NCBI GenBank assembly: GCA_964642155.1
Contig: CAZXNT010000003.1
Location: 899 to 64,898 of the forward strand
DNA from: an uncultured Candidatus Saccharibacteria bacterium
GTDB lineage: Bacteria; Patescibacteriota; Minisyncoccia; UBA6257; UBA9933
DNA length: 64,000 nt
Direction of reading: 5' to 3'
Shown here in pieces: positions 5,583 through 23,050 of this stretch (position 1 is the stretch's first letter; the number at the start of each line of letters is the position of its first letter). Both the position numbers and the translations under genes were made by a program. The notes under the pieces were generated by a model that saw nothing but the letters and a program-made list of their open reading frames with translations, made no database searches and was not told the DNA's origin.

Positions 5583-5680
5583 GCTTGCAAAGCAGAAAAT
5601 TTTTTTCTGAAACCTAAACGAAAGCGCAGCCCCGCTAAGCGGGGCGTGAGCGGGTTGAATAAAAAAATTTCTGCTTTGCA
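5583..5680. repeat. copy 1 of a repeated structured element (candidate ncRNA)
   Basis: Outer stem gcaaagcagaaaattttttt / aaaaaaatttctgctttgc enclosing a conserved core (CTGAAACCTAAACGAAAGCGCAGCC ... GCGTGAGCGGGTTGAA) and an inner hairpin ccccgctaagcgggg. Second copy at ~22950. Confidence 0.4.
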
Positions 5681-5683
5681 AAA

Positions 5684-7426
5684 CTATTTAAAAAATTCCA
5701 ATAATTTCTCAAGGGGTTGAGTATTGATAATATCCCCTTTTTCCGCCCAACCGCGGCGAGCTTGGCTCACGCCATATTCCATAAAATCCATTTGTTCTTC
5801 GCGATGGCTGTCAGTATTAATAATCATTTTCACGCCCATTTGTTTGGCTTTTCTGATATTCGCGTCTTTCAAATCCAACCTATACGGACTGGCGTTAATT
5901 TCCAAAATCGTGCCGGTTTCTTTCGCGGCTTTTAAAATTTTATCAAAATCAATTTCATATTCTTCGCGCCTTTGCAAAATTCTACCGGTTGGATGCGCAA
6001 TAATGTCAACATTCGGATTTTCCATCGCTTTAATAATTCTTTCAGTCATTTTCGCCTTGGGCATTTTCATTTGAGAATGAACTCCCACAATAACATAATC
6101 AAGTTTTGCCAACGCATTGTCGCTAATGTCAATGAAACCGTCCGCCATTATGTTCGCTTCGCAACCGCACAAAATTTTCAATTTACAATTTTCAATTTTC
6201 AATTTCTGATTTAATTTATCAATATATTTTTTCTGTTCCGCTAATTGCTTTTCATCTAATCCATATTCAATCGCCAAAAATTTTGTATGGTCGGAAATTC
6301 CGATATATTCATAACCGCGCTCCATCGCCAATTCCGCATATCGCTTAATTATTTGCAAACCCGCTTCTTTTCCTTCACCCCAATGCGAATGACAATGCAA
6401 GTCGCCTTTTATGTCTTTATAATCAACGAGTTTTGGAATTTTACCCGCAAGAGCCGTTTCAATTTCTCTTTGATTTTCCCGCATTTCCGGCGGAATCCAT
6501 TGAAGTCCTAATTTTTCATAAATTTTTTTTTCGGTCTCGCCGGCAATCATTTTTGAATTGCGAAACAAACCGTATTCCGACAATTTTAATCCTTTTTTAA
6601 TGGCGATTTTTCGCAAAACAATATTATGTTCTTTTGAACCGGTAAAATATTGCAAAGCCGAACCAAAACTTTCTTTTTTCAAAACCCGCAAATCAATATC
6701 AAATCCGTCTTCCAAACGGACAGACGCTTTAGTCGGTCCCTTGCCCCAAATTTTCACGACGCCCGGCAAAGAAACAAAATAATCAATAACCGCCTTGGGT
6801 TTTGAAGAAATAACTAAAATATCGGCGTCGCCGATTGTTTCTTTCCTGCGGCGAAACGAACCGGCTTCGGAAACAAATTCCGTTTCTTTAAGATTCGCCA
6901 ATCCGGCCATAATTTTCCTGACTTTCGGCAAAATATGCCCCAATAAAAATCTACCCGCGCTTCTTTTTAAAAATTCAATGCCTTCTAAAATATTTTTTTC
7001 TGTTTTTTCGCCAAAACCTGATAATGAAGCGATTTTATGTTTTTTCGCCGCGTTTTCCAAATCGCGCAGATTTTTAATCTTTAATTTTTGATATAAAATT
7101 TTTATTTTCTTCGGACCCAATCCTTCAACTCCCAGCAGTTCTTCAATATCAACCGGCGTTTTCTTTTTGAGAGCTATGAGTTCTTTGATTTTTCCGGTTT
7201 TCAAATATTCCTCAATTTTAAAAGCAATGCCCCTGCCAACGCCGGGTATTCCCATCAGCGCTTTTAACCCGCCTTTATTGTAAATATTTTTCACATCCTC
7301 ACTTAGGGCCTCCAAATTAACCGCCACTTTTTTAAAAGCGATTGATTTGAAAGGAACCACACTTCCTTCCATGTCCAAATAATTGACGATTTCGTAGAAT
7401 ATTTTAGCAAGTTCTTGATTGATCAC
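5684..7426 (-). CDS. polX: DNA polymerase X family protein with C-terminal PHP phosphoesterase domain
   Basis: HhH GIPGVGRGIA, pol-beta-like palm, PHP HCHSHWGEG. GTG start at 7426 is proposed because the upstream MRTFPPPFFFEF stretch is just the reverse complement of a plus-strand Shine-Dalgarno. Confidence 0.8.
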   Translation of the reverse strand: MINQELAKIFYEIVNYLDMEGSVVPFKSIAFKKVAVNLEALSEDVKNIYNKGGLKALMGIPGVGRGIAFKIEEYLKTGKIKELIALKKKTPVDIEELLGVEGLGPKKIKILYQKLKIKNLRDLENAAKKHKIASLSGFGEKTEKNILEGIEFLKRSAGRFLLGHILPKVRKIMAGLANLKETEFVSEAGSFRRRKETIGDADILVISSKPKAVIDYFVSLPGVVKIWGKGPTKASVRLEDGFDIDLRVLKKESFGSALQYFTGSKEHNIVLRKIAIKKGLKLSEYGLFRNSKMIAGETEKKIYEKLGLQWIPPEMRENQREIETALAGKIPKLVDYKDIKGDLHCHSHWGEGKEAGLQIIKRYAELAMERGYEYIGISDHTKFLAIEYGLDEKQLAEQKKYIDKLNQKLKIENCKLKILCGCEANIMADGFIDISDNALAKLDYVIVGVHSQMKMPKAKMTERIIKAMENPNVDIIAHPTGRILQRREEYEIDFDKILKAAKETGTILEINASPYRLDLKDANIRKAKQMGVKMIINTDSHREEQMDFMEYGVSQARRGWAEKGDIINTQPLEKLLEFFK

Positions 7427-7500
7427 AAAGTTTAATATATCATAAAATTTAGAAGCTTTAAAATAAAATAGGGGAAACTCAAAAAAGAAAGGAGGGGGAA

Positions 7501-7773
7501 ATGTTCTCAAAAAATAAGTTAGAAAACGTCATCGTCGCTTATGATGACAAAAAAAAGTGCCCTGTATTCTTTGGATCTAAAAAAGGAAAGTTGGGACGCC
7601 GTAGCCTGGGAGATATTATCTGTTTTGAGAGTTCAGATCTTCTCAGGATTAATAACGTCTTAGACTTTGTAATTTTTGTTCATTTCTTGTTGAATATTTC
7701 TTCTGGACTACACGCCAAAGAATTCTACTGTAGTTCTGCAGGTTACGAAAATGCCTATCTTTTTTATAAGTAA
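7501..7773 (+). CDS. small hypothetical protein (90 aa)
   Basis: Strong SD AAAGGAGGGGGAA 5 nt before the ATG. Followed by the hairpin terminator at 7802. No recognisable domain. Confidence 0.4.
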   Translation: MFSKNKLENVIVAYDDKKKCPVFFGSKKGKLGRRSLGDIICFESSDLLRINNVLDFVIFVHFLLNISSGLHAKEFYCSSAGYENAYLFYK

Positions 7774-7801
7774 GGCAAAACGCCTCGCCAAACAGACCGC
7801 C

Positions 7802-7837
7802 AGCCCTGATCACTTGCATATCAGGGCTTTTTATTTT
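7802..7837 (+). terminator. rho-independent terminator
   Basis: agccctgat-cacttgcat-atcagggct followed by tttttatttt. Confidence 0.55.
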
Positions 7838-10372
7838 CTATACAATTTCTATTTCTCCGCTTTTTATAACTGCTTTAACACTATCTCCTTTTGCAACTTC
7901 TCCCCTTAAAATTTTTTCCGCCAAAACAGAACGCAGTTTTTCAGAAATCACGCCGCGCAGGGGCCGGGCGCCGAAAACCGGGTCATAACCGAGTTCCGCT
8001 ATTTTACGCGTTGCTTCCTCGTCGCATGAAAAACCGATGCCCTGTTCTTCCAAACTTTTTGCCAATGATTTTAATTGGAATTTTGCGATTGCCACGATGT
8101 CCTCGCGGGAAAGATTTTTAAAAACAATTATTTGCGAAAATCGATTCAACAATTCCGGCTTGAAATATTCAGTAAGTTTTTTCTTTAATTCTTCGCTGAT
8201 TTTTTTAATATTATCGCCTGCTTCAATCCGTTCTTTGATAAAATTAGAATGGGCGTTGGAGGTGGCGATGATAATCGTATTGCTGAAATCAACCGTCCTG
8301 CCTAAACTATCGGTAAGCCGGCCATCATCAAAAACCTGCAAAAATAAATTTAAAATATCCGGATAAGCTTTTTCAAATTCATCAAGTAAAACTAAACTGA
8401 ACGGCTTTTGCATTATGGCGTCGGTAAGGCTGCCACTGATTTTTCCATCCGGCGTTCCGATAAATCTCATAATGCTTTCTTTTGTCTGATACTCTGACAT
8501 ATCAAAACGAACCATTAAATTTTCAGAGCCGAATTGTATTTTTGCCAGAATTTTTGAAAGCTCAGTCTTGCCCACGCCGGTCGGACCAACGAACAAAAAC
8601 GAGGCGATGGGTCCACCTTTGCGGCTTAATCCGCTGCGATATTCTCTTAACGCGCGGCTAACGGCTGAAACCGCCTGCTCCTGGTCAACTAAAAATTGAT
8701 GAATGATATTTTCCAAATTCAATAATTTTTTTGCTTCTTCTTTGCCCGCGCGACGCACCGGAATGTTTAATTTTCTTTCAACAACCGCGATAACATCATC
8801 TGCCTGAAGCAATCCGTCTTTGCAACTGATGGCGAACGACAAAGATTCTCTCAATAAATCCTGAGCGCTTGAAGGCAAAAGTTTCTGTCTAAAATATTTA
8901 TGGCTAAGTTCAACCGCGGCCTTAATGGCGCTGAAACTAATTGTTATTTTGTACTGTTTTTCCAAAATTAAACTGTCATACGCGAGAATTTTTATCGCAT
9001 CGTCTTCGCTTATTTCTTCAATACGAATATTTTCAAAAGCATTCGTAAAATCACTAAGCGGTTCAATAAACTGCTTAAATTCTCTCGGGTAAGTGGCGCC
9101 GATGAGCGGGAAAGCGTCGTTATTTATCACCGGCATTAAAATATCAGCCGCGTTCATTGTGTCTCCGGAAGTTTTAACTAAATTATGAATATCAGGTATG
9201 TAAAGAATAATATTCCCGGAAGAAATAATTTCTTCAACCACTTTATTGAGGCGGCTGGAAATTTCAGCAGTTGAAGCTCCGGAAATTAAATTACCTAATT
9301 GAAGCGAAACAACCCGTTTATCAAAAATTGATTCCGGAACTTCGTCTTTAATGATAGCATGCGCCAAAGCCGAAATAATGGCTTCTTTGCCGCTTCCGGG
9401 CTCGCCGACAAGCAAAGCATTCGGCTTAATGGAACGCGACAAGATATCAATTAAACGGTTATATTCCTGCTGATGGCCGATTAAAAATCCAGCTTCGCCG
9501 GCAGCAGCCATGTCGGTAAAATCAATGCTAAAACTATCAAGTGTGGGAGTTGGCCTGGAAGTCCAAGCGCGATTCATCACCCGATGCCTAATTTTTTTAG
9601 GACGCGAAGCAAAGCCGCCTAAATTTTTGGGCAAACTACTCCAAAATCCCTTTTTAAAGCGGCTGAAAATCATCGCCTTTTCCAAATCCAACGGATTAAT
9701 TTCAAAAAAAGTAAAAATTTTATTCGTCTGGGAATCATTAATTTCGCCTAAAGCCGAAAATAAATCAACCGGCTCAATAAAACGATTGTTATTGGCAATG
9801 GCGACAATAAAAGCCGCTTTTGCGATTAATTCTATTTGGAGCAATAATTCTTTTTTATCGGTTTTATTTCTTTCCGCGTCGCTTTTAATAATCGCATCCG
9901 CTTGTTTTTTCATTTCCTCAGCGTCAATATCCATCCGCGAAAGCCCGTTCTTGATTTCCGGGAGTTGAACAAGAAATTTTAACGCTTGCAGATAAAAATT
10001 ACCTCCAACCGCCGATGTTTTGTCAAAAGCCGATTCTAAAATCCTAAAACTTGCGGAAGAAAAATAACGGGCAGTATTGATATTTTCCGGCAAGATAGTT
10101 TCATGATTTTTCCGACGGCTTAAACGCGGAAAATGCCTTGTTAAGCCGATAAATGATTTTTGAGCTTGGCCCAAATGAATAATTTTGTCTCCCAAAAATA
10201 ACGCGATGAAAATTCCTATCCAAAATAATGGTTTAATGTCTGAAAATAAAAAAGTGATGCCGGCGACCGCAAAAACCGAATATGACGAATAATAAATCAA
10301 CCGCGTTAAAAAACGCGAAAAATGACTCATTTGAAAACGCAAATCTTGAAAATATAAATTATTAATATCCAT
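7838..10372 (-). CDS. Clp/Hsp100 AAA+ ATPase (ClpC/ClpA-like) with N-terminal transmembrane extension and degenerate first nucleotide-binding domain
   Basis: Clp N-repeat NNRFIEPVDLFSALG. NBD1 Walker A is GEPGSGKE and Walker B is IPDIHNL, both non-canonical. NBD2 is intact (GPTGVGKTE, LLDEFEKAYPD, sensor/arginine region). The first ~90 aa are hydrophobic. Confidence 0.8.
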   Translation of the reverse strand: MDINNLYFQDLRFQMSHFSRFLTRLIYYSSYSVFAVAGITFLFSDIKPLFWIGIFIALFLGDKIIHLGQAQKSFIGLTRHFPRLSRRKNHETILPENINTARYFSSASFRILESAFDKTSAVGGNFYLQALKFLVQLPEIKNGLSRMDIDAEEMKKQADAIIKSDAERNKTDKKELLLQIELIAKAAFIVAIANNNRFIEPVDLFSALGEINDSQTNKIFTFFEINPLDLEKAMIFSRFKKGFWSSLPKNLGGFASRPKKIRHRVMNRAWTSRPTPTLDSFSIDFTDMAAAGEAGFLIGHQQEYNRLIDILSRSIKPNALLVGEPGSGKEAIISALAHAIIKDEVPESIFDKRVVSLQLGNLISGASTAEISSRLNKVVEEIISSGNIILYIPDIHNLVKTSGDTMNAADILMPVINNDAFPLIGATYPREFKQFIEPLSDFTNAFENIRIEEISEDDAIKILAYDSLILEKQYKITISFSAIKAAVELSHKYFRQKLLPSSAQDLLRESLSFAISCKDGLLQADDVIAVVERKLNIPVRRAGKEEAKKLLNLENIIHQFLVDQEQAVSAVSRALREYRSGLSRKGGPIASFLFVGPTGVGKTELSKILAKIQFGSENLMVRFDMSEYQTKESIMRFIGTPDGKISGSLTDAIMQKPFSLVLLDEFEKAYPDILNLFLQVFDDGRLTDSLGRTVDFSNTIIIATSNAHSNFIKERIEAGDNIKKISEELKKKLTEYFKPELLNRFSQIIVFKNLSREDIVAIAKFQLKSLAKSLEEQGIGFSCDEEATRKIAELGYDPVFGARPLRGVISEKLRSVLAEKILRGEVAKGDSVKAVIKSGEIEIV

Positions 10373-10712
10373 ATAAAATCTTATAAATCACAAAAATCGG
10401 AAACGCCAGCCAAATCAAATATAATCCCGCTGCCGCTCCAATAATAACTAAATAAAATAATCCTCCCACAAGAAGCCTTTGCAATCTGAAAATAAATCCC
10501 AAAATATATCCCAAAACAGTTCTATCTTGATAGAGCGGATGAAAAAGATAACGCCAAGTTATTTTAAAAGCGAAAAATCTGTCAATTTTTTCAAGAAACG
10601 AAACAATAAATTGGCTGTAAACAAAAAAACTATTAATGTACCAATGGCGCAAAAACTCTTTAATGCGAAATATAGAGTGATTTAAAAGGTAAATAAACAA
10701 CATAAATTTCAC
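10362..10712 (-). CDS. hypothetical membrane protein
   Basis: 116 aa hydrophobic ORF with no recognisable motif. Confidence 0.35.
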   Translation of the reverse strand: MKFMLFIYLLNHSIFRIKEFLRHWYINSFFVYSQFIVSFLEKIDRFFAFKITWRYLFHPLYQDRTVLGYILGFIFRLQRLLVGGLFYLVIIGAAAGLYLIWLAFPIFVIYKILYGY

Positions 10713-10719
10713 TAACTGT

Positions 10720-12105
10720 TTAGGGAGTTAAATATCTCACAATCACAATACCCGAACCGCCAGATCCTGCCAATCCTATTGGTGAATAATATTGCGATCC
10801 ACCGCCACCGCCACCGCCAGTGTTTACAGTCCCATTAACAGCATTGCCACCGCCGTAGCTAGTGCCTCGCCCGCCACCTCCAGTTCCTCCATTTCCATAA
10901 GTTACATCTCCACATCCTCCGCCACCGCCGGCATAAACCACAGAAGAACCGGAAATTGAATATGTAATACCATTGCCTCCATTTCCACCTTGATAATTCA
11001 AGGGAGCGTTTTGACCTACTGCATTAGCTCCTCCTCCTCCTCCAGCACCGTTATAAGAAGTGCATGGTGAATAACCATTACCTCCATTATTTCCTTGTCC
11101 TGAAGTTCCACTGCCACCCGAAGTTAAACAAGCTCCTCCTCCGCCACCACTACCTCCGGCAAGCCCATTTCCAGAATGTATTCCTCCACCTCCTCCACCA
11201 ATAGCTGTTATGGAACTAAAAATAGAATTACCGCCATTTGAGCCATTTGCCCCATCATTTGCTTGACCTCCGGCGCCTACGGTTACAGAAATATTCCCCG
11301 AGGAAACAGGAAAACTGGAATTATAAACATATCCTCCAGCTCCGCCACCACCGCCCCTCATTCCACCGCCGCCTCCACCGCCGCCCACAACAAGAACTTG
11401 GACATTGCCGCTACCTGTAACTGCGAATGTTCCGTTTGATGTAAAGGTATGAACTGTAAACGCCCCATCAGTTGTTGTTGCGCCGCCAGTAGCGCTAAAA
11501 GGAGTAGACGTAGACCCTCCTCCGGAAGTATTCCATAGGGCAAGGTCAGAGCCAAGTTCAAATCTGGTATTGTCATAACCTCCGTCATTCTGGGCAATGG
11601 GAAGGTATTTAACTGATTCTATTTTAGTTGTTAGAGACCAGGAACCTGGGATATAGGCGTAATAGTAGGAACTGTTATTAATGGGATCTACTGGAAGAAT
11701 TGCCAAGGGAGGACTTGCTTGGGTGGAATTGAAATTGACGGGTATCCAGCCTGTTCCGTCTGTTTTTCTGTATTCTGATTCTGGTTTACAGGTATATGTC
11801 CAACCTGCTGTGAGAGAAGGAAGGTCGGCAGAATATAAAGAACAGTTAGCATTGGAATCCGGGAGAGATAGATAGACGGCTGAAGAAGTGCCGTAATATA
11901 GAGTGTTGGAATTGAAGGTGTAGAGTCTTATGGCGTCGTCTATGACTTTGATTTCGGAGAGACGTTTGGCGTCTCTGGATTGTTTGAGGAGTTCCGCGGG
12001 GTTGAGAACCAATATGACGACTGTGGCTAAGGTTGCCAATACACCTATGACGATGAGGAGTTCAAGGAGGGTGAAGGCGGTTTTATTAAAAAAATTTTTA
12101 TTCAT
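10720..12105 (-). CDS. prepilin-type N-terminal domain protein with long glycine-rich C-terminal region
   Basis: Class III signal (basic leader, then AFTLLELLIVIGVLA with Glu at +5). The C-terminal ~250 aa are Gly/Asn/Ser-rich repeats ending GSGIVIVRY. Confidence 0.6.
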   Translation of the reverse strand: MNKNFFNKTAFTLLELLIVIGVLATLATVVILVLNPAELLKQSRDAKRLSEIKVIDDAIRLYTFNSNTLYYGTSSAVYLSLPDSNANCSLYSADLPSLTAGWTYTCKPESEYRKTDGTGWIPVNFNSTQASPPLAILPVDPINNSSYYYAYIPGSWSLTTKIESVKYLPIAQNDGGYDNTRFELGSDLALWNTSGGGSTSTPFSATGGATTTDGAFTVHTFTSNGTFAVTGSGNVQVLVVGGGGGGGGMRGGGGGAGGYVYNSSFPVSSGNISVTVGAGGQANDGANGSNGGNSIFSSITAIGGGGGGIHSGNGLAGGSGGGGGACLTSGGSGTSGQGNNGGNGYSPCTSYNGAGGGGGANAVGQNAPLNYQGGNGGNGITYSISGSSVVYAGGGGGCGDVTYGNGGTGGGGRGTSYGGGNAVNGTVNTGGGGGGGSQYYSPIGLAGSGGSGIVIVRYLTP

Positions 12106-12113
12106 AATTATAA

Positions 12114-13154
12114 TTATACCGGTATTAAATACTTTACTTCGCCTTTTTCAATAAACATTTTAATATTTTCAATATCGGTATCTAAAATGCGCTGCAACGC
12201 TTCTTTGGTATTAAAAGCGGTATGCGGCGTAATAACAACATTTGGCATATCAATTAAAACATGGTCGGCCAAAACAGCCCTAAGATTGTGCCCCTCCAAA
12301 CTGCCGGAAAGCAAAAATTGACGTTCATCTTTTATAATTCCCTCTTCTTCCAAAACATCCGCGCCATAGCCTCCTAAAATTTCTTCGCTCAAAGCTTTAA
12401 CCAAGGCTTCTGTTTCCACGAGCGGACCGCGCGCCGTATTGATAAGCAAAGCACCTTTTTTAATTTTAAGAATATTATTGGCGTTGATTATATGATGCGT
12501 GGATTCATTATAAGGAACGTGCAAGCTCACCACGTCCGAATTCGCCAATAATTCATCCAAAGAGACATATTTAAATCCCAATTCTTCCGCCATTTTTTGA
12601 TTTGGATAAGCATCAAAAGCCAGAACCTCCATCCCGAATCCCTTGGCGATTTTTACCATAAATCTGCCGATTCTGCCCGTGCCGACAATACCGATTGTTT
12701 TTCCGTTCAAATCAAATCCGCGCAACCCTTTAAAATCAAATTGCCCTTTCTCTTTGATGCGGTCGTACGCTTCAAAAATTTTCCGCGACAAACTAAGAAT
12801 CAAAGCAAAAGCGAATTCCGCCACAGTATTGTCGCCGTAACCCGGAATATAAGCGGTTAAAATTCCTTTTTCTTTGGCATAAGCCGCGTCAATGTGGTCA
12901 AAACCAGTGGAGCGGGTAGCGATAAGCTTCAAATTCGGGAAAGCGTCAATAACTTCTTTTTTGATTTCCGAGCCGACAAAAACCGAAATAACGTCAAAAT
13001 CAAATCTGAAAGATTTGTCCTGAGCCAGCCGAAGGACTTCGTCCTTATTTAATTTCCCATCATAAAAAAACAATTCCTGATTACTGATTACTGATTTCTG
13101 ATTCCTAATATAATCGGTTTCCCAATTTTCTATTTCAAAGAATGCGATCTTCAT
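12114..13154 (-). CDS. D-isomer-specific 2-hydroxyacid dehydrogenase (D-lactate/phosphoglycerate dehydrogenase family)
   Basis: NAD-binding GIVGTGRIGRFMVKIAKGFGMEV, catalytic R/E/H pattern, 346 aa. Confidence 0.85.
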   Translation of the reverse strand: MKIAFFEIENWETDYIRNQKSVISNQELFFYDGKLNKDEVLRLAQDKSFRFDFDVISVFVGSEIKKEVIDAFPNLKLIATRSTGFDHIDAAYAKEKGILTAYIPGYGDNTVAEFAFALILSLSRKIFEAYDRIKEKGQFDFKGLRGFDLNGKTIGIVGTGRIGRFMVKIAKGFGMEVLAFDAYPNQKMAEELGFKYVSLDELLANSDVVSLHVPYNESTHHIINANNILKIKKGALLINTARGPLVETEALVKALSEEILGGYGADVLEEEGIIKDERQFLLSGSLEGHNLRAVLADHVLIDMPNVVITPHTAFNTKEALQRILDTDIENIKMFIEKGEVKYLIPV

Positions 13155-13160
13155 AGTTTT

Positions 13161-13189
13161 ATTTTACAATAAATTAGATTATGGAGCAA
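13161..13189 (-). promoter_or_regulatory. sigma70-like promoter TTGCTC-N17-TAAAAT; ATG 6 nt downstream (leaderless)
   Basis: Minus-strand reading TTGCTCCATAATCTAATTTATTGTAAAATAAAACTATG. Nearly identical copy at 14201..14229. Confidence 0.45.
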
Positions 13190-13250
13190 ATCAATTATTG
13201 GCGCCTATTTAATTTTTGCTTTATTTTTCAAAAATATATAAACTTGATTT

Positions 13251-13730
13251 ATGGAGGACTTATCAAATTATAATAAATTAAAGGAAGATGCACAAAAATT
13301 CTATAATGACATAGGAAAGATTTTTTCTCCCGCTCTTAATCAAAATATTCATTTCAACGCAGAAGGATTTAATCATATCGTTTTTAAAAGCGCTCGATCC
13401 GAAAGAGAACGATCATCTCAAATATTAAGATTTAAATTATTGCCTTTGGCAATTAAACTAATAAAAATATCTACTACTTATCAAGAATTTGAAGAAACAC
13501 TGAAAGAGTTTTCTGTTAAAAGTTTTAAAAAACGCATCCAAAAAACTCAACCAGTAAAATATTGGGGTATTATCGCCATAATTGATGGTAGAAAAATAAA
13601 AATAATAATCAGGCGGATTGGAGATAATGGCATAATGCACTTTTGGAGTATCGTGCCTGCTTGGACCACAAACAAACATCGCGATATAAGATTTTTTACA
13701 ACAATGAAAGGTAATCCGGAAGAAGATTAA
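13251..13730 (+). CDS. hypothetical protein
   Basis: 159-aa ORF followed by a terminator. No recognisable domain. Confidence 0.4.
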   Translation: MEDLSNYNKLKEDAQKFYNDIGKIFSPALNQNIHFNAEGFNHIVFKSARSERERSSQILRFKLLPLAIKLIKISTTYQEFEETLKEFSVKSFKKRIQKTQPVKYWGIIAIIDGRKIKIIIRRIGDNGIMHFWSIVPAWTTNKHRDIRFFTTMKGNPEED

Positions 13731-13738
13731 AAACAAAA

Positions 13739-15221: not shown

Positions 15222-15290
15222 AAATTTACTTGCCCCGTAGCAAGCTTTGCCTTACTACTGGGGTTCGTCTAATTTTTTTATGGTCAACTC

Positions 15291-15318: not shown

Positions 15319-15328
15319 AACTGCTTAA

Positions 15329-15595
15329 CTACTTTATTGTAATTTCAATTATTTTTTGGAAATCTTTGGGCATTTGAGGATTTATAGAATAAAAAACATG
15401 CCCCTCAACGCCTTGCGCATCCAAAACATCCAGATTTTTAAGTATGGCAAGGTGGTTAGAAGTGGCTTTAAAAGAAATATTCAAATCCTCCGCAATATCG
15501 CCGACATTCATCTTGTGGCCACCGGTCAGCATTTTAATTATTTTTAGCCGGTTAATATTGGCCAAAGCTCTAAAAATTACAGTCCATCTTTTCAT
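15329..15595 (-). CDS. ArsR/SmtB family transcriptional regulator
   Basis: Winged HTH INRLKIIKML...DIAEDLNISFKATSNHLAILKNLDVL. Confidence 0.8.
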   Translation of the reverse strand: MKRWTVIFRALANINRLKIIKMLTGGHKMNVGDIAEDLNISFKATSNHLAILKNLDVLDAQGVEGHVFYSINPQMPKDFQKIIEITIK

Positions 15596-15620
15596 ATAAT
15601 AATATTATAGGATAATTTAT

Positions 15621-15650
15621 CATTGTACAATTCTATGGAATTGTACAATG
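15621..15650. promoter_or_regulatory. operator copy 2 (CATTGTACAATTC-TATG-GAATTGTACAATG) immediately upstream of the ArsR start
   Basis: Compensatory A/T change in both arms preserves the dyad symmetry. Confidence 0.5.
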
Positions 15651-15686
15651 AGTTAATCGCCTATTTTTTTTGTTAACCAAGAAATT

Positions 15687-16214
15687 TTATTCATATTCCC
15701 ACTCTATTATTAAAAGATTCTTTTTTTTAATTCCGCAAGCTAATGCCCCTTCAATAAACTTAGTTTGTGCTTTTGTTAATTTATCTTTTCCTTTGTGTTT
15801 ACTTTCACAAAATAAAATATCCCCATTCTTCCAAAGAAACACATCAAAACAAGCAGTGGTTTTTCCTGCTTTCCATATACGCTTTAACAAATTTTCTTTA
15901 TCTTCTGGTATGGGGATACTGCTTTGGGCCAATTTCCAACTATTGGGCATGGTCCGAATAAAATTTTTTCCCCCATAAGTTTCCACCCAAACTCCATCCC
16001 ATCCCAATGAAGTAAATAACTTTAAGATAGCGAGTTCTGCAAATGTGGCTTTACTATTATATTTAACGAAGGGCTTTTTACCAAAATCAAATCTTGGCAC
16101 TTTACCCGCCCACCTCCTAAAAACTGCGTAGTATAAGGGCAACGTTACTTTTTTACCAGATGGCAATAATACTGTTGTCTTATTAATATTTTTTAGCTCC
16201 GGTGGTATAGTCAT
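15687..16214 (-). CDS. VRR-NUC domain (PD-(D/E)xK) nuclease family protein
   Basis: CFDVFLW...ILFCESKHKGKDKLTKAQTKFIEGALACG matches the VRR-NUC D...ExK core. Confidence 0.6.
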   Translation of the reverse strand: MTIPPELKNINKTTVLLPSGKKVTLPLYYAVFRRWAGKVPRFDFGKKPFVKYNSKATFAELAILKLFTSLGWDGVWVETYGGKNFIRTMPNSWKLAQSSIPIPEDKENLLKRIWKAGKTTACFDVFLWKNGDILFCESKHKGKDKLTKAQTKFIEGALACGIKKKNLLIIEWEYE

Positions 16215-16248
16215 AATTTATTCTCCCAATTTTTTTTGTTGGCCGAAT

Positions 16249-16278
16249 CATTGAACAATTCTATGGAATTGTTCAATG
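16249..16278. promoter_or_regulatory. operator copy 3 (CATTGAACAATTC-TATG-GAATTGTTCAATG) upstream of the VRR-NUC gene
   Basis: Seen directly. Confidence 0.5.
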
Positions 16279-16287
16279 AAAATTAAA

Positions 16288-16803
16288 TTAATTAAGTTTT
16301 TGACTTTTTATTGAATTATTAAGCGTTGGTTTCAAATATTTTTCCACCAAGGCGTCATATTTTTTAAGAATATCTTTAGAGATATTCAAATAATCCGCTT
16401 TTTCTAACGGCCAACCTTTTAATCTTTTGTTTTTATCGTGATAAGGCGGTTTTGTTATTAAAAAATAAGGTTCTTGATAACAATTCACAAAAATGATTAT
16501 TGGTTGCCAAAAATGATTTAACCGATTCAACATTTCAAAATCGTTTTTATGCCACTTCGGACTCCAACGGAATTTGACTTCAATAAAAAATGGTTCGCCC
16601 TTTTTATTGATTACCAATAAATCCGGGATAGAACGTATTTTCTCCCCTATTTCGGTATGCCGGTCAAAAACTTTCTCAACTTGTGTTAAATTTTGTAATG
16701 TTGATTCGTAACCGAAACGATAAACTTGATTACCGGCTTCCCGCAAAATTTCGCTAACTAATGATTCCGCCATCCGGCCTTTTAAAATTGACTCAGGATT
16801 CAT
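16288..16803 (-). CDS. PD-(D/E)xK nuclease superfamily protein (YraN/Hjc-like core)
   Basis: GRMAESLVSEILREAGNQV ... PDLLVINKKGEPFFIEVKFR pattern. Confidence 0.5.
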   Translation of the reverse strand: MNPESILKGRMAESLVSEILREAGNQVYRFGYESTLQNLTQVEKVFDRHTEIGEKIRSIPDLLVINKKGEPFFIEVKFRWSPKWHKNDFEMLNRLNHFWQPIIIFVNCYQEPYFLITKPPYHDKNKRLKGWPLEKADYLNISKDILKKYDALVEKYLKPTLNNSIKSQKLN

Positions 16804-16830
16804 AAATTCATTTTACCACATCAACAACAA

Positions 16831-16866
16831 AAAATCCGCCCCGCTAAACGGGGACGGTTTTTATTA
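16831..16866. terminator. bidirectional hairpin terminator
   Basis: aaaaatccgccccgctaaacggggacggttttt. A tract on one side and T tract on the other. Follows the clpP stop. Confidence 0.5.
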
Positions 16867-16870
16867 AAAT

Positions 16871-17461
16871 TTACTTATTGTTTTTCCCTTTAATAATCTC
16901 GTCAATAATGCCGTATTCTTTGGCTTCAAAAGCATTAAGATAAAAATCGCGGTCAGTGTTTTTTTCAATTTTGGAAATCGGCTGACCGGTGTGCTTAGCC
17001 AAAATTTGATTGAGTTTGTCTTTGATTTTTAAAATCTGGCGGGCGGCGATTTCCACTTCCACCGCCTGGCCTTCAACTCCACCCAAAACTTGATGAAGTA
17101 AAATTTCGGAATTCGGCAAAGCAAATCGCTTGCCTTTTTTGCCGGCTGCTAAAAGCACGGCGCCCATTGAAGCCGCCATACCCACGCAAATTGTGGAAAC
17201 ATCCGGCTTAATATGCTGCATTGTGTCATAAATCGCCATACCAGCGGTAACCACACCCCCCGGAGAATTGACATAAAGTTTAATGTCTTTTTTCGGGTCC
17301 TCGTGTTCCAAAAATAAAAACTGGGCGATTATGCTGTTCGCCACTTGGTCGTTTATCGGCCCGCCGAGAAAAATAATTCTGTCCTTCAAAAGTCGCGAAT
17401 AAATATCATACGCGCGTTCTCCATATTGCGATTTTTCAACCACCATTGGAACTAAGTTCAT
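16871..17461 (-). CDS. clpP: ATP-dependent Clp protease proteolytic subunit
   Basis: Catalytic-triad context GMAASMGA, 196 aa. Confidence 0.9.
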
Positions 17462-19434
17462 TTTAAAAATCTAACAATTAACAACGCCACAATATTCATT
17501 ACTTTAATTAGTGGGTTGATTGCCGGGCCAACAGTGTCTTTATACGGGTCACCGACCGTGTCGCCAGTAACAGCCGCCTTATGCGCTTCCGAACCCTTAC
17601 CGCCGTGATTGCCGGATTCAATATGTTTTTTGGCGTTATCCCACGCAGCTCCTCCGGAAGTCATTTTAATCGCCATAAATAATCCGGAAATAATTGAACC
17701 GATTAAAAGTCCTCCTAAAGCTTTGGCGCCCAATAAAAATCCGACTGCCAAAACCGCCACAATCGGAACCAGTGACGGGATAATCATTTGCCGCAAAGCG
17801 GCTTTTGTCACGATATCAACCGCGCGGTCATATTCCGGCTTTGCCGTTCCCTCCATAATGCCCTTAATTTCGCGGAATTGCCGCCTGACTTCGTCAACCA
17901 CCGAACCCGCGGTTTCTCCCACCGCGCGCATTGCCATTGAACCAAAAAGATAAGGTATTGCCGCGCCCAACAGCAATCCGGCTATAACATAAGGGTCCTG
18001 CAAATCAAATCTCACGTCTTTAATCACGGTTGCCAATTCTTCAGCATAGCTGGCAAATAAAACTAAGGCGGCCAAACCGGCTGAGGCAATCGCGTATCCC
18101 TTAGTTACCGCTTTTGTAGTATTGCCGACCGCGTCAAGGCTGTCGGTAATGTTTCTGATTTCTTTCGGCTGATTAGTCATTTCCGCAATACCGCCGGCAT
18201 TATCGGTAATCGGTCCGAAGGAATCAATCGCCACGATTATTCCGGCAGTGGAAAGCATGCTCAAAGCCGCTACGGCAATGCCATAAAGTCCGGCAAACCA
18301 AAAACTTATCAAAATTCCTCCGGTGATAACGACAATAGGCAAAAAAGTGGCTTCCATTCCAACTGCCAAACCCATAATAATATTAGTGGCATGACCAGAA
18401 GTTGACGCTTCGGCAATGGAACGAACCGGCCGAAAATGTTTTGCCGTATAATAATCAGTGATAAAAACCATTAACAAAGTAACAGCCAGCCCGATTAAAG
18501 CGCAAAAATAAATTCCCAAATAATTCTGGCCAAAATAAAATTTTGTCAAAGGATAAAAAAGAACGGCTGAAATCGCAACTGTGCCGATAAGTCCCTTATA
18601 AAGCGCAGCCATAATTTTTTCCGACCTGTCTTTGAAACTTAATTTCACAAAAAAACTTCCAATTATTGAAGCTAAAATCGCCACTGAAGCCAGTGCCAAC
18701 GCGAAAGCAATGGCGCTGGGACCGACAATCAACGCTCCCAAAAGCAAAGCCGCCGTCAAAGTTACGACATAAGTTTCAAAAAGGTCAGCCGCCATGCCGG
18801 CGCAATCGCCGACATTATCGCCGACATTATCGGCAATCACCGCCGGATTGCGCGGGTCATCTTCCGGAATGCCGGCTTCAAGTTTACCGACTAAATCCGC
18901 GCCCACATCTGCCGCTTTGGTAAAAATTCCACCACCCAATCGCGCAAAAACCGAAATCAAACTCGCGCCAAAACTTAAACTTATTAAAAGGCGCAAATCA
19001 TTGGTTAAAAAATAAAATCCGGCAACACTCAACAACGCCAGCGCCACCACGAGAAAGCCCGTAACCGAACCAGCTTTAAAAGCCAAAGAAAACGCCGATG
19101 ATAAACTTTTTTTTGCGGCTTCAGTTGTTTTAACATTGGAACGAACGGCGATATTCATTCCGATATAACCGGCTAAAGAAGAAGCAACTGCGCCGATTAA
19201 AAATCCGGCGACCGAAAGCCAACCAAACGCAAAGTAAAGAATTATTGATAAAACAACGGCAACCAACGCGACGCTGCGCGATTGGCGATTAAGATAAGCT
19301 TTGGCGCCGGAAGCAATCGCATTGGAAATTTCTTTCATTTCCGCGCTACCGCTTGGCTGTTTCCGCAACCACAAAATAATATAAACGCTGTATAAAATGG
19401 CAATTAAAGCCGGAATAAAAATTATTGTCTTCAT
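17458..19434 (-). CDS. hppA: membrane-bound H+/Na+-translocating pyrophosphatase
   Basis: [37 protein letters not shown] motifs. Multi-TM, 658 aa. Confidence 0.9.
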
Positions 19435-19446
19435 AATTTTATTTTA

Positions 19447-20637
19447 CTATTCTTCTTTTTCTTTTTCAATATTTTCAGCCTTTGCGCTCTCTGCTTCGGA
19501 AACGCTTTCCGCAATTCCTTCCGCTAAAACTTCATCGGGTCTTGATAATGAACGAACGTCTATTTTCCAACCGGTCAATTTTGCCGCTAAACGCACATTT
19601 TGTCCGCCTTTGCCGATTGCCAAACTTAACTGGTCTTCGGGAACAAAAACTTTCGCTTCGCGACGCGGCAGAACATCCACTCCCTTAACTTTCGCCGGAG
19701 ACAAGGAAGCGCCCACGAATTTTGCCGGGTCTTCCGACCATTCAATAATATCTATTTTTTCATTGCCAAGCTCATTTGTTACGGATATCACGCGCATCCC
19801 CCGCTGGCCGACGCAAGCGCCAACCGGGTCAACTCCCTCAACACTGGAAGCAACGGCGACTTTTGTTCGGTTGCCGGCTTCCCTCGCGATTGATTTAATT
19901 TCCACCGTTTTATCATGAATTTCCGGCACTTCCAATTCAAATAATTTACTTATAAATTTTGGGTGAGAACGCGAAAGTATCAAACCGGGCATTCTTTCTT
20001 CTTCCTGAACCGCCAAAAGATAAAATTTCATTCTTTCGTTAATTCTATAATATTCTCCCGGGATAGTTTCATTAAAAAACATTACGCCCGTGGCGCGACC
20101 AAGGTCAACAAAAACATTGCCACGCTCAATCCGCTGAATTATGCCACTGATAATTTCGCCCTCCTTGCCCTGATATTCTTTGATGACAGATTCCTTTTCC
20201 GCTTCCCTGATTTTTTGCAAAATAACCTGCTTGGCCGCTTGAGCCGCTATCCGGCCGAAATCTTCGCGCTCTTCAAGCGAAAACTCCAAATCTTCTCCAA
20301 TTTGTGCGTTTGATTTTATATTTTTCGCTTCTTCCAATAAAATATGACGTTCCGGATTGTATAACGGCAGAACCTCTTCTCCTTCTTCCTTTTTTTCTTT
20401 TCTTTTTTCTTCGTCAAAAATCACCGTACTTTCGTCAACTACGTTTCTTATTTTCCAAAATTTAACTTCGCCTGTTTTAGAATCAAGCTTAGCTTTGATA
20501 ATTTCGCCTCTTTTGGCGTATTCTTTTTTATAAGCCGCGGCGATTGACGATTCCACCACTTCCAGAATTTTTCTCTTATCAATTCCTTTCTCGTCGGCAA
20601 TCTGTTCAATCGCGCGGTTAAGATTTTTTAAATCCAT
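19447..20637 (-). CDS. nusA: transcription termination/antitermination factor NusA
   Basis: N-terminal domain, S1 and two KH domains, 396 aa. Confidence 0.9.
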   Translation of the reverse strand: MDLKNLNRAIEQIADEKGIDKRKILEVVESSIAAAYKKEYAKRGEIIKAKLDSKTGEVKFWKIRNVVDESTVIFDEEKRKEKKEEGEEVLPLYNPERHILLEEAKNIKSNAQIGEDLEFSLEEREDFGRIAAQAAKQVILQKIREAEKESVIKEYQGKEGEIISGIIQRIERGNVFVDLGRATGVMFFNETIPGEYYRINERMKFYLLAVQEEERMPGLILSRSHPKFISKLFELEVPEIHDKTVEIKSIAREAGNRTKVAVASSVEGVDPVGACVGQRGMRVISVTNELGNEKIDIIEWSEDPAKFVGASLSPAKVKGVDVLPRREAKVFVPEDQLSLAIGKGGQNVRLAAKLTGWKIDVRSLSRPDEVLAEGIAESVSEAESAKAENIEKEKEE

Positions 20638-21129
20638 CCCTCACCCTTCAAAGATTTTATTTTCCATTTAAAAAATGAAAAATATTAATTCTTTGAATTT
20701 TTATTTTTATTTGAATTTTTATCCACTTACTCTTCAATAATATTTTTTTAAAATATCTTTGAAGGGTGAGGGATAATTTATGTTAATAAATCCGCTCATT
20801 GGCGGACTTTAATAATTAAATTATATGATAATTAAAGAACGAAAGTCAATAACTCGCTCCTTAGAAAATAAAAAATATTTTTGAACAAAATTTCGTTTAA
20901 CGTATCGGGATAAAAGAAGTTTTGCGGAGTGAAACGAAATAAAATTTGGGAAAAATGCGAGCTGAGCATTTTTCCGCATACTCGGTGTTAGGCGTCCCGA
21001 AGTTCCGCCTTCCTTAATGTAATTTTAATTAAAAAAGGCGGAACGAGAGCGCAGCGTGGCTTGAATAATAAAAAGCCTTTTAATTTATATTCCTTATGAA
21101 AAAATTTCGGCAATTTATTTAGAATTACA

Positions 21130-21690
21130 TTATTCTTCTCTGATTTTTTTCAGTTTCTCTTGCATTTTTTTAGGATCTTTTTTGTATTCTTCCATTCTAT
21201 ATAACCTTATTTTATTATGATCCTCCTTGGCTTCTGAGAAAATGTTTTCTACGCCAAACTCTTTGAAAATCTGTTGCATAATTTTTTCGCAACTTTCATC
21301 AACTGGCCTCCATGGCGTGCGATCAAGCACAGGATAGAATCCATAGGCAATTTTTTTAAAATCTTCTGGCGTTATTATTTCTTTGCTATTTCTGATTAAG
21401 TCAAATATGCCAGCAGATGATGGACAATTTTCAAGTCCAGAGTTTTTCATTTTTTCTATTCTTTTATCTAATTCACTTTCAAATAATTCCCTCTTTGTTC
21501 CTTTTCCTTCAAATAATTTCTGTCTTCTTTCTGCATCTTCATGCTTAGTTATGCCTGCCATTTTTTTAGCTTCCTTTAGCTCTTTGGGAGTTTTAATTTC
21601 CAAATTATCCTCTTCGTAGGCAGGATGATTTTTCCATTGGTTTTCTATACTCATAGTTTTTTGTGAGCCGGTCATAAAATAAATTGCCAA
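21130..21690 (-). CDS. hypothetical protein
   Basis: 186-aa charged ORF with no recognisable motif. The true start may be the internal Met (MSIENQW). Confidence 0.35.
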   Translation of the reverse strand: MAIYFMTGSQKTMSIENQWKNHPAYEEDNLEIKTPKELKEAKKMAGITKHEDAERRQKLFEGKGTKRELFESELDKRIEKMKNSGLENCPSSAGIFDLIRNSKEIITPEDFKKIAYGFYPVLDRTPWRPVDESCEKIMQQIFKEFGVENIFSEAKEDHNKIRLYRMEEYKKDPKKMQEKLKKIREE

Positions 21691-21852
21691 AATTTATAAA
21701 AAAATAAATTAAAAGGCTTTTTATTATTACGCCTAACTCGTTATTATACGACGTGTTTGATGTATAATATGCGCATTGTTGTATATTATACGAAATTATA
21801 ATATTATCGACCCATATTACATTTTATTAAATTATAACGAAATTTTATAAAT

Positions 21853-22581
21853 TTACAAGAGCTTGTTTTTTCTCTGCCATTCATCTATTTTTTTATGATT
21901 TCCGGACAAAAGGATTTTTGGAACTTTATATTTTTTTCCGCCAGCTGGCGGATAAACAAATACTTCCGGCCTGGTGTAAACGGGCAAACCGACGCCATGC
22001 CGCTTTTCTTCCAAAGATTCCTGCTTGCCCAAAACGCCGGAAATCTGGCGCGAAACAGAATCAATTAAAATCATTGCTGGAAGTTCACCGCCGGTTAAAA
22101 CATATGGCCCGACAGATATTTCCTGAATCTTAAATCCTAAATCCAAAATAACTTTTTTAACTCGGGCGTCTATTCCTTCATAACGACCGCAAATTAAAAT
22201 AAGGTTGTCATATTTTTCAGATAATTGCTTCGCAATTTTATTGTCAAATTGTTTGCCTACCGGCGAAAATAAAATTACTTTAATTCTGTTAATTCTCAAA
22301 TTCTCAAGAATTTGAGAATTAACATCTATTTTTTTCTTAATTTTCAAAATCGAACTTATCGCTTTTATCAAAGGTTCAATTTTAAAAACCATTCCCGGTC
22401 CTCCGCCAAAAGGCCTGTCATCAACTTTGCGATGCTTATCTTTGGTAAAATCGCGCAAATTATGAATTTCAATTTGAATAAGTTTATTTTTTTGCGCCCG
22501 CTTCAAAATAGACTCGTTTAAATATGATCCGTCTTTGGCGGAAAAAATTTTCGGAAAAATTGTGATGATGTCAAATTTCAT
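21853..22581 (-). CDS. trmD: tRNA (guanine37-N1)-methyltransferase TrmD, carrying an in-frame 12-codon insertion encoded by a 36-bp palindrome
   Basis: SPOUT motifs DDRPFGGGPGMV and ICGRYEGID. The palindrome at 22288..22323 encodes VNSQILENLRIN, which is absent from the equivalent E. coli TrmD region. Confidence 0.9.
   Translation of the reverse strand: MKFDIITIFPKIFSAKDGSYLNESILKRAQKNKLIQIEIHNLRDFTKDKHRKVDDRPFGGGPGMVFKIEPLIKAISSILKIKKKIDVNSQILENLRINRIKVILFSPVGKQFDNKIAKQLSEKYDNLILICGRYEGIDARVKKVILDLGFKIQEISVGPYVLTGGELPAMILIDSVSRQISGVLGKQESLEEKRHGVGLPVYTRPEVFVYPPAGGKKYKVPKILLSGNHKKIDEWQRKNKLL
22288..22323. repeat. 36-bp palindromic element (17-2-17) inserted in frame in trmD
   Basis: GTTAATTCTCAAATTCT-CA-AGAATTTGAGAATTAAC. 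Related copies at 48844..48879, 49161..49196 and 50055..50090. Confidence 0.7.
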
Positions 22582-22949
22582 AAAATCATTTGTAAGAATT
22601 AATTGCGTTATTTACAATATTCTCGGACAAATTATTTTTCAGAAGCAGAATAATTTTGTTCCAGCGGCACCCCGCTAAGCGGGGCTTCGCCCTCGGGCTG
22701 GCATCCAGCCAATTTAATACTTCATTTTAATCTCAAATTCCTGTTATTTCAACGATAGTTGAAATAACAGGAATTGTCGAAATTGAAAAATTTGATTGAA
22801 AGATATTAAAAATTCTTTTATTCTATCTATAAACTGGCTGGAATCAAGCTGCCAACCCTGCGGGATGTTCCGAAAAACAATTTGTCCGAGATATAAAGAT
22901 AAAATCAGGCGTAAAATCTTTTTTATAGCCAACTTGTCTGGGTAGGGGG

Positions 22950-23050
22950 AAATAGCAAAAACAAAATTATTTCTGAAACCTTAACGGAAGCGCAGCCCAG
23001 CACATAACTTGTTATGTGCTGGGCGTGAGCGGGTTGAAGAAATAATTTTG
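22950..23050. repeat. copy 2 of the repeated structured element
   Basis: Same conserved core CTGAAACCTTAACGGAAGCGCAGCC ... GCGTGAGCGGGTTGAA, with a different inner hairpin and an outer stem that covaries with copy 1. Confidence 0.4.

Follow-up and report, generated by a model that had tools for sequence, protein, structure and literature searches.

The 64,000-nt stretch of contig CAZXNT010000003.1 analysed here (assembly GCA_964642155.1, an uncultured Candidatus Saccharibacteria bacterium; hereafter the window) carries two copies of a palindromic intergenic element that we name H. Copy 1 (5585–5681) is located between the stop codon of a PolX gene and a terminator-like hairpin shared with a convergent MscS-like gene, and copy 2 (22952–23060) resides downstream of the terminator of a KH-domain gene and upstream of trmD. 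Both are on the plus strand, their limits refined with a covariance model, R1, built from relatives of the element. The letter A denotes a second structured element, found in the same gap as copy 2, and L followed by a number denotes a relative locus.

The core of H comprises two halves, the 25-nt CTGAAACCTWAACGRAAGCGCAGCC and the 17-nt GGCGTGAGCGGGTTGAA, each of which has exactly two matches in the window, all on the plus strand; none is expected for the former in 100 shuffles and none by chance for the latter. R1 scores copy 1 at 91.8 bits (E = 7e-20) and copy 2 at 95.8 bits (E = 7e-21), in agreement with a preliminary description of this DNA that had proposed two full copies with a common core. 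Each copy is closed by an outer inverted repeat that differs in sequence between the two while retaining complementarity (20/22 positions in copy 1 and 19/21 in copy 2, plus one wobble), as had been described, with a length of 21–22 bp instead of the ~19 bp given then. The inner hairpins had been said to differ entirely, and indeed the apical hairpins of the two copies are unrelated in sequence. Both copies fold as one long hairpin, with a minimum free energy of -45.7 kcal/mol for copy 1 (z = -6.2 relative to shuffles) and -55.4 kcal/mol for copy 2 (z = -10.2), and the hairpin is very stable on either strand. R1 reveals no third copy in the 64-kb window, the remaining matches being generic palindromes.

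Architecture, covariation and strand preference of H

From its base, H begins with an outer stem of ~21–25 bp that is variable in sequence while pairing and semi-conserved in its inner third (AAAnrwTTTTCT). The stem leads into a 2×2 tandem G·A loop (CUGAAA/UUGAAG), followed by an invariant 5-bp helix (AACCU/GGGUU), the terminal pair of which (columns 30–87 of a curated alignment of 32 copies) is U·G in 28 copies and C–G in the other four. An 8-nt purine-rich bulge (WAACGRAA) then precedes a short invariant helix with a G·A mismatch (GCGCA/UGAGC), above which a bulged G is followed by an exchangeable apical hairpin of 9–37 nt. The conserved part, common to all H copies, is thus an asymmetric core of ~45 nt, and the columns of its 5' half are invariant or near-invariant across the 32 diverse copies. 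The tandem G·A loop, the conserved U·G pair, the G·A mismatch, the bulged G and the GRAA-containing bulge are all RNA-like motifs.

The substitution pattern among relatives shows that the H fold is maintained by compensatory change. The curated alignment consists of flush copies with different arms, chosen so that at least 17 of their 21 arm pairs are in register, which tilts it towards pairing; moreover, the copies are related and the counts are therefore not of independent events. Within this set, 95.6% of the cells pair, compared with 73% after column shuffling and 40–53% when the partners are slid, and 28 of the 39 pairs exhibit double-sided changes. The covariation score is 0.60 versus 0.16, and 0 of 500 shuffles attain any of the observed measures. 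RNAalifold independently returns the same fold as the hand-made structure. Columns 1–11 of the outer arms each contain three to five pair types, and the information content falls to ~0 beyond position -24.

Transition mismatches within the stems are strand-asymmetric. On the strand that reads CTGAAACC, G·U-type mismatches outnumber A·C-type mismatches by 113 to 35 over all copies, and by 47 to 17 in the curated set with the invariant pair excluded. The sign of this wobble bias is identical in every gene context, such that the CTGAAACC strand pairs better than its complement throughout. A mutational origin of the bias was considered and rejected, the sign being the same in all contexts and, in the commonest one, opposite to that expected from deamination of the non-transcribed strand or the lagging-strand template. 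Because the bias is constant across contexts and contrary to strand-biased deamination, we read the fold as having been selected on a folded single (plus) strand, be it RNA or single-stranded DNA, and not as duplex DNA.

Distribution among Patescibacteria

Two pattern scans together yielded at least 103 unique copies of H and at least 134 complete ones, and all attributable copies are in Patescibacteria (the Candidate Phyla Radiation, CPR). The preliminary description had regarded a lack of additional homologs as telling against a structured RNA; relatives are instead plentiful. When one genome per species was scanned with an exact pattern, most of the matches listed were chance ones in G+C-rich genomes, and at least 15 true H copies were identified in at least 14 loci of CPR genomes. 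Among the matches listed, the hosts are metagenome-assembled genomes labelled Patescibacteria, Paceibacterota, Wolfebacteria, Jorgensenbacteria, Saccharibacteria or unclassified 'bacterium'. A metagenome scan with a second pattern, in which other parts of the core were fixed, gave 114 stretches, mostly from groundwater. As regards the parts of the core that each pattern left free, CTGAAACCYWAACGRA and TTGAR are almost unvarying among the genome matches listed, and GCGCA and GU are essentially constant among the metagenome matches. In the latter, the apical stem covaries in its first three pairs (GCC/GGC, GCU/AGC, ACC/GGU, GUC/GAC and GAA/UUC).

At gathering thresholds, a search of the whole window against Rfam 15 passes only a tRNA, with no family at H, and permissive scans of copy 2, of a locus with A and H in tandem, of a composite in which A is nested within H (H[A]) and of a copy of the long-form subfamily described below give nothing above ~28 bits. 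The best sub-threshold match of copy 2 is RF01742 (lactis-plasmid), with 28.0 bits and E = 0.03 in a 751-nt search, against a gathering threshold of 70. ARAGORN, which detects tRNA and transfer-messenger RNA, reports nothing at the elements. A scan of viral contigs for H gave 0 matches, a BLAST search of plasmids gave none, and a literature search returned nothing relevant except TIGR-Tas (tandem interspaced guide RNA), which does not fit. By these comparisons, H constitutes a hitherto undescribed repeat family, ~90–120 nt in length, whose palindromic members form hairpins between the genes of Patescibacteria.

Gain, loss, exchange and inversion at orthologous loci

Between PolX and MscS, H is retained in three genomes. 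In L240, where PolX is 87% identical, H occupies the corresponding position with unchanged orientation, with almost identical arms that include one compensated pair, and with an apical hairpin that differs from that of copy 1. In L241–L243 (PolX 80% identical), the arms are homologous and still pair, although about one-quarter to one-third of their positions differ as estimated by eye; the core differs at two to three positions, and a complete element A replaces the apical hairpin. At 75% PolX identity the synteny is gone. The persistence of H at this site across genomes indicates that a copy can be old, with arms that evolve by compensation, a core held nearly constant and an apex that is a hot spot of exchange.

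The gap between the KH gene and trmD (22582–23171 in the window) tells of gain or loss. In the Wolfebacteria relative L237 (TrmD 74% identical) it measures 57 nt (2443–2501), corresponding to the KH terminator, with no A and no H, and in the closer relative L235 (TrmD 79% identical) it holds 237 nt of unrelated sequence without H. A and H are therefore additions in this genome. The remark in the preliminary description that rimM would normally sit in this gap is misleading, since rimM is missing between the KH-domain gene and trmD throughout the lineage and has not been replaced by these elements; the 57-nt gap, free of A and H, looks like the ancestral state. In two orthologous MacA–MacB operons, H directly follows the MacA stop codon in opposite orientations and with different apical hairpins. 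These loci show that H copies are gained or lost between relatives. Copies also occur inverted between orthologous sites, and some are inverted with respect to the outer flanks that enclose them.

Gene context and orientation

With genes delimited by simple ORF (open reading frame) calling, all four configurations of neighbours relative to the H strand occur (-,- in 32 cases; +,+ in 17; -,+ in 13; +,- in 11). H typically fills a short intergenic gap and often begins 0–30 nt from a stop codon, and when the right-hand gene is convergent the median distance to it is 18 nt. Relative to the coding strand of the whole locus, the orientation of H is random (23 opposite, 20 same, 19 mixed), and both orientations are found inside single contigs; on these grounds we rejected a tie to replication or transcription. 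A position profile of 98 left flanks reveals no common upstream motif or promoter beyond the stem, and a generic promoter scan detects no plus-strand site upstream of either window copy. H is not called as an intrinsic terminator and is not followed by a U-tract, the scan calling instead the neighbouring hairpins at 5549–5583 and 23129–23160. Host transcripts at both window sites would bear the complement of the better-pairing strand. The window also encodes RNase III (rnc).

Element A and its association with H

A partial copy of H had been proposed at 22640–22700. The 15-mer ccccgctaagcgggg is indeed identical at 22670–22684 and 5630–5644, but this mini-hairpin is all that 22640–22700 shares with copy 1; none of the H core is present, and the flanks belong to element A. 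A decayed H was thus rejected in favour of A. The mini-hairpin itself, the G+C-rich CCCCGCTAA(G/A)CGGGG, occurs at 5630–5644, 16839–16853 and 22670–22684, where it is, respectively, the apex of H, part of a terminator-like hairpin that follows a gene, and a component of A, which suggests a pool of small hairpins copied between structured elements.

In relatives, A spans ~150 nt and comprises a covarying closing stem of at least 16 bp, a tandem-mismatch loop, a 13-bp hairpin and a variable hairpin, around a three-way junction with the invariant sequences ACCCUCG, ACCAAG and CUGCGGGAUG. Compensatory changes are observed in 25 of 50 pairs. A covariance model for A, R2, finds 26 places in the collected related loci (L131, L147, L215 and L241–L243 among them); A, like H, is undescribed, and Rfam holds no family for it. 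The window copy is aberrant in that the mini-hairpin replaces the 3' strand of hairpin P2 and ~120 nt are inserted in the loop of P4; it is missed by R2 because of these insertions and disruption. A occurs alone, in tandem with an H that follows 20–110 nt downstream along the same strand of DNA, or nested in the apex of H in two lineages, where the composite H[A] folds as one structure (z = -10.5).

The mismatches of A favour the strand opposite to that of H (16 A·C versus 4 G·U), which is weak evidence because its sequences are related. On that opposite strand, the internal loop of A is a tandem G·A with the same CUGAAA/UUGAAG motif as H, flipped. In 10 of 19 cases, a start codon follows 10–45 nt beyond the end of A on its better-pairing strand; the gene concerned is trmD in the window and galU or one for a glycosyltransferase, a helicase or a membrane protein elsewhere. 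The TATAAA box at the edge of A that faces H (22892–22897) was not called by the generic promoter scan; it could be a candidate -10 element for H in tandem modules, as judged from the conservation of its form there.

Repeat-like behaviour and the search for a mobilising enzyme

At least 16 copies from a single aquifer make up a long-form subfamily with near-identical arms and apex. Its outer layer carries fixed termini, TACTTTGAATTACGAAA...TTTCGTAATTCAAAGTA (the TACTTTGAATTACGAAA...TTTCGTAATTCAAAGVA region), and asymmetric loops separate it from the inner stem; two members have the core the other way round with respect to these loops. When 17 long-form copies are aligned with their flanks, similarity stops at the palindrome and the sequences beyond are unrelated. 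No direct repeat indicative of a target-site duplication is present in these 17 copies, the flanks instead extending the inverted repeat (TAC...GTA). The preliminary description had taken fixed, non-covarying termini as the sign of a miniature inverted-repeat transposable element (MITE). For most copies this sign is lacking, whereas this one subfamily does have fixed outermost termini. The outer repeat of the subfamily, TTGAATTACGAAA...TTTCGTAATTCAA, also encloses a different, H-free cargo of ~130 nt and in one place encloses 6 nt only (L127, 2933–3096; L204, 480–517); it may be a separate palindromic element with H nested inside.

Apical modules are shared across otherwise dissimilar elements: H copies whose arms are unrelated have the same hairpin types, and these types recur in P4 of A. 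Copy 2 is surrounded by an additional 16-bp inverted repeat, perfect and with asymmetric spacers, and three independent Logan assemblies of this locus (L232–L234) stop at 23074, inside its right arm. These contig ends, 14 nt from copy 2, were initially regarded as evidence for multiple copies, a reading that we withdraw, given that a local 16-bp inverted repeat alone breaks de Bruijn assemblies. No autonomous insertion sequence with ends matching H is present in the window or between paired copies, and the sole reverse transcriptase of the window belongs to an ordinary diversity-generating retroelement (DGR).

Table 1. Positions of H, its parts and the adjoining elements in the window
Feature	Position	Strand	Basis or remark
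H copy 1, whole	5585..5681	+	R1 model; between PolX stop codon (5684) and shared terminator hairpin
Copy 1 outer stem, 5' arm (pairs with 5660–5681)	5585..5606	+	Complementarity 20/22; near-identical in ortholog L240, homologous but compensated in L241
Copy 1 core, 5' half: CU[GA] tandem-GA strand, P2 AACCU, 8-nt bulge AAACGAAA, P3 GCGCA	5607..5631	+	Exact pattern match
Copy 1 variable apical hairpin GCCCCGCTAAGCGGGGC	5629..5645	+	Replaced at the orthologous site: other hairpin in L240, whole A element in L241
Copy 1 core, 3' half (bulged G, UGAGC, GGGUU, GA)	5643..5659	+	Exact pattern match
Copy 1 outer stem, 3' arm	5660..5681	+	Fold and arm complementarity
Terminator-like hairpin common to convergent PolX and MscS-like genes; abuts copy 1, outside H	5549..5583	-	Conserved beside H in L240 and L241
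H copy 2, whole	22952..23060	+	R1 model, fold
Copy 2 core, 5' half	22973..22997	+	Exact pattern match
Copy 2 variable apical hairpin GCCCAGCACATAACTTGTTATGTGCTGGGC	22995..23024	+	Identical hairpin in L075 of another genome, between entirely different outer arms
Copy 2 core, 3' half	23022..23038	+	Exact pattern match
Additional 16-bp outer inverted repeat round copy 2, left arm GCGTAAAATCTTTTTT	22909..22924	.	Pairs with 23071–23086, read from sequence
Additional outer inverted repeat round copy 2, right arm	23071..23086	.	Pairs with 22909–22924
Terminator-like hairpin of rpsP-KH operon	23129..23160	-	Sole feature between KH and trmD in relative L237
Element A, containing the formerly proposed partial copy	22621..22891	- (tentative)	Closing stem P1, tandem-mismatch loop, hairpin P2, three-way junction with P3/P4 in relatives
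TATAAA box at 3' edge of A, towards H	22892..22897	+	TAnnnT form conserved there in tandem A-H modules

Other features of the window

The DGR is complete (27943–31587), comprising a reverse transcriptase (27943–28833, minus strand), bAvd (28915–29313, plus strand), a template repeat (29327–29465) and a variable repeat (29790–29928) at the 3' end of a 601-aa ORF without a Pfam match; 23 of the 24 mismatches between the repeats are at minus-strand adenines. Near-perfect A/T-rich palindromes of ~40 nt (GTTAATTCTCAAATTCT..AGAATTTGAGAATTAAC) are found at 22280–22323, 36086–36124, 36408–36446, 48836–48879, 49153–49196 and 50047–50090, and are reminiscent of Rickettsia palindromic elements. One of them lies in frame within the variable linker of trmD, a stretch in which this TrmD exceeds three of the four relatives compared by 8–13 residues. 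A perfect 23-bp hairpin with arms resembling the outer arms of H overlaps the 3' end of tRNA-Gln (57405–57455) and is followed by an odd G-run region (57500–57650).

Of the 55 called ORFs, 45 are on the minus strand, including nearly all ORFs left of ~55.7 kb, and to the right of this point most are on the plus strand. The strand switch suggests that a replication origin is nearby. A class I aminoacyl-tRNA synthetase of 1207 aa resembling isoleucyl-tRNA synthetase (50441–54064) bears a His_Phos_1 domain inserted at residues 515–681.

Interpretation

We tentatively favour the reading that H is a structured repeat akin to REP (repetitive extragenic palindromic) sequences and REPINs (REP doublets forming hairpins), with a core that would be recognised by a putative trans-acting factor. 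Such a factor, conceivably a nuclease, a recombinase or an RNA-binding protein encoded elsewhere, would act on the folded single strand and use the asymmetric core as its recognition site. Spread could proceed by copying of whole elements; apical modules would be swapped when the two conserved halves of the core recombine or undergo gene conversion, and recombination between the inverted arms would flip the core. When read through by transcription, H would form a long double-stranded RNA hairpin and is therefore likely to be an RNase III substrate. Nothing ties H to the regulation of a particular gene. The preliminary description had argued from stem covariation for a structured RNA rather than a mobile repeat: the covariation is massive, with more than 100 relatives, and selection on a single strand is indicated, so this part stands, whereas the dichotomy between the two does not, H being gained, lost, inverted and exchanged in the manner of a genomic repeat.

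Several observations weigh against a repeat driven by such a factor. The unpaired conserved features, including the tandem G·A, the GNRA-like GRAA and the U·G pair, are typical of functional RNAs. At the vertically inherited PolX locus the core is ~94% conserved where PolX is only 80% identical, which looks more like purifying selection at the level of the host than like a selfish relic, unless gene conversion is frequent. Estimates of core conservation are themselves inflated, since some core positions were preset in the exact-match searches and the genome matches considered are those listed. No transposase, HUH or integrase domain is found among the 55 ORFs of the window, and between paired copies there are only housekeeping genes and no mobilising enzyme. 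Furthermore, the apparent copy number is modest, with two copies in 64 kb and few extra ones in ~620 kb of flanks.

It is possible, if somewhat unlikely, that H represents a family of genes for trans-acting structured non-coding RNAs that read as the CTGAAACC strand; in some of them A would form the apical domain, giving a composite of ~265–290 nt. In such RNAs the core would be a protein-binding or catalytic centre and the stem and apex tolerated decorations, with several paralogous genes per genome. Very strong core conservation while the helices covary, a wobble bias for one strand whatever the neighbouring genes, and RNA-typical motifs formed by unpaired nucleotides are consistent with this, as is the independence of orientation expected of a stand-alone gene. 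The core is retained at the PolX locus in three genomes, and the nested H[A] of two lineages folds as one structure. A conserved TATAAA/TATAAT box is positioned 4–20 nt upstream of the H stem in tandem A-H modules (TTCAAG-N16-TATAAT in L215), yet no promoter motif is common to the copies, copy 1 has a terminator hairpin directly upstream and no promoter-like plus-strand site, and no U-tract terminator follows H. Flips, apical swaps, differences in presence or absence and a burst subfamily with fixed termini would be unusual for RNA genes, and A apparently pairs better on the strand opposite to H, although this evidence is weak. A doubtful but serious prospect is that H, alone or as H[A], constitutes a functional structured RNA of a new class confined to Patescibacteria, in which an invariant purine-rich core serving as ribonucleoprotein scaffold or small ribozyme would be carried by modular genes that exchange apical domains through recombination and have multiplied like a mobile element.

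Host benefit has been proposed to account for the spread of REP, ERIC and Correia elements, and H might by analogy be a cis-acting transcript element, that is, a terminator or insulator, or an RNase III processing or stabilising site at mRNA 3' ends. The proximity to stop codons (often 0–30 nt) and to convergent right-hand genes (median 18 nt), the RNase III gene in the window and the stability of the hairpin on both strands are compatible with such a role. In three genomes, moreover, copy 1 lies between the PolX stop codon and the terminator, and hence within the PolX 3' untranslated region. We nevertheless consider this reading unlikely: a plain hairpin function leaves the core conservation unexplained, and an asymmetric, near-invariant core is at odds with an orientation that is random relative to transcription and differs between orthologs. 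Host transcripts at both window loci carry the less well pairing strand, and H, devoid of a U-tract, is not called as an intrinsic terminator. A recombination site of folded single-stranded DNA, in which structure and boxes on one strand are recognised as in integron attC sites or the hairpins of HUH transposases, would account for the strand preference in all contexts, the lack of target-site duplications and the exchange of modules at the apex. Its layout of conserved paired boxes, extrahelical bases and a variable terminal structure is attC-like, and GTTGAAT of copy 1 fits the R' consensus GTTRRRY, but most copies have GTTGAAG or GTTGAAA and the 5' box is unlike RYYYAAC. Cassette arrays and an integrase or HUH gene nearby are lacking, the extra 21–25 bp of lower stem have no attC counterpart, and there is no orientation bias relative to the probable direction of replication, all of which renders this possibility decidedly unlikely. 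Finally, an ordinary cut-and-paste MITE, with terminal inverted repeats bound by a DDE transposase and the hairpin a by-product, is scarcely credible. H is multi-copy, short, non-coding and palindromic, and one subfamily has fixed outermost inverted termini; in most copies, however, conservation is lowest at the termini and highest in the centre, a pattern that largely refutes this reading. The arms change by compensation, the wobble is strand-asymmetric, and neither a direct-repeat target duplication nor, among the window ORFs and between paired copies, a transposase was found.

Patescibacteria have genomes of ~1 Mb with very little non-coding DNA, and their non-coding elements are almost undescribed. 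The core of H is conserved across several CPR classes at a level usual only for rRNA, tRNA and RNase P, while its helices covary freely. Driven as a repeat by an enzyme, H would point towards a nucleic-acid enzyme of a new, structure-specific kind in Patescibacteria, and could be studied as a natural example of how hairpins are maintained, flip back and forth and exchange modules. As an RNA, H would represent a new non-coding class, A possibly being a second one, in a lineage where function has to be inferred from sequence. On the practical side, such palindromes cause metagenome assemblies to break and may be taken for regulatory leaders by mistake.

Comparison with known systems

Several motifs and families were compared with H by eye. 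The box C/D k-turn, helix 8 of the signal recognition particle RNA, 5S rRNA, domain V of group II introns, the 11-nt tetraloop receptor, boxA, and single-strand promoters and origins do not fit beyond a few nucleotides. A box C/D-like k-turn of the kind found in TIGR units was rejected: with CUGA on its 5' side and UUGAAG on its 3' side, H has a symmetric 2×2 G·A loop without a bulge, rather than a RUGAUGA C box on the 5' side, a CUGA D box on the 3' side and a 3-nt bulge. TIGR units are palindromic stems enclosing short conserved motifs in CPR bacteria; they form tandem arrays beside a Tas gene, and their small C/D motifs are separated by variable spacers (PMC12045711). H is distinct in being solitary, with no variable spacer in the core and no Tas neighbour. 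RF01742 shares with H a long A/U-rich hairpin and a purine-rich internal loop (CUGAAAC ... GUGAAAG) near the lower stem, whereas the rest of the core is unrelated and the hosts are Lactococcus plasmids, a different context.

The likeness to attC sites lies in an imperfect hairpin recognised on one strand by its structure and positioned immediately after ORFs. H departs from the R''/R' consensus, its 5' side being CTGAAAC instead of RYYYAAC and the 3' side fitting in copy 1 only. In addition, H copies are solitary between housekeeping genes, much more conserved in sequence and equipped with a long lower stem. Correia/NEMIS, ERIC, RUP and BOX elements, bacterial MITEs with an RNA hairpin fold, are, like H, intergenic palindromic repeats (~100–150 nt) with insertion polymorphism between strains, and they can be co-transcribed and cut by RNase III. 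Their terminal inverted repeats are conserved, their targets are duplicated (TA for Correia) and they decay uniformly without compensation; H, by contrast, combines variable termini (except for the outer layer of one subfamily) with an invariant centre, covariation and no duplication.

The overall character of H is most readily compared with that of REP sequences and REPINs, which are short, non-coding extragenic hairpin repeats present in several to many copies per genome, a description that H matches. Also shared are a frequent location at gene 3' ends and between convergent genes, long vertical persistence, compensatory change that keeps the hairpin, the lack of target duplication and a presumed dependence on a trans-encoded factor. 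REP/REPIN elements are mobilised by RAYT (REP-associated tyrosine) transposases, the repeats commonly flanking the RAYT gene. For a RAYT gene, of the Y1 HUH type, no HUH domain is found among the 55 window ORFs, the 64 kb and short metagenome loci having been covered. In REPINs the conserved parts are two inverted REP ends of the GTAG type and the middle is free, whereas in H a single asymmetric central core is conserved and the arms are free. H thus has no inverted pair of conserved units, and its copy number is seemingly lower; it is further set apart by its exchangeable apical module and by its nesting with a second element.

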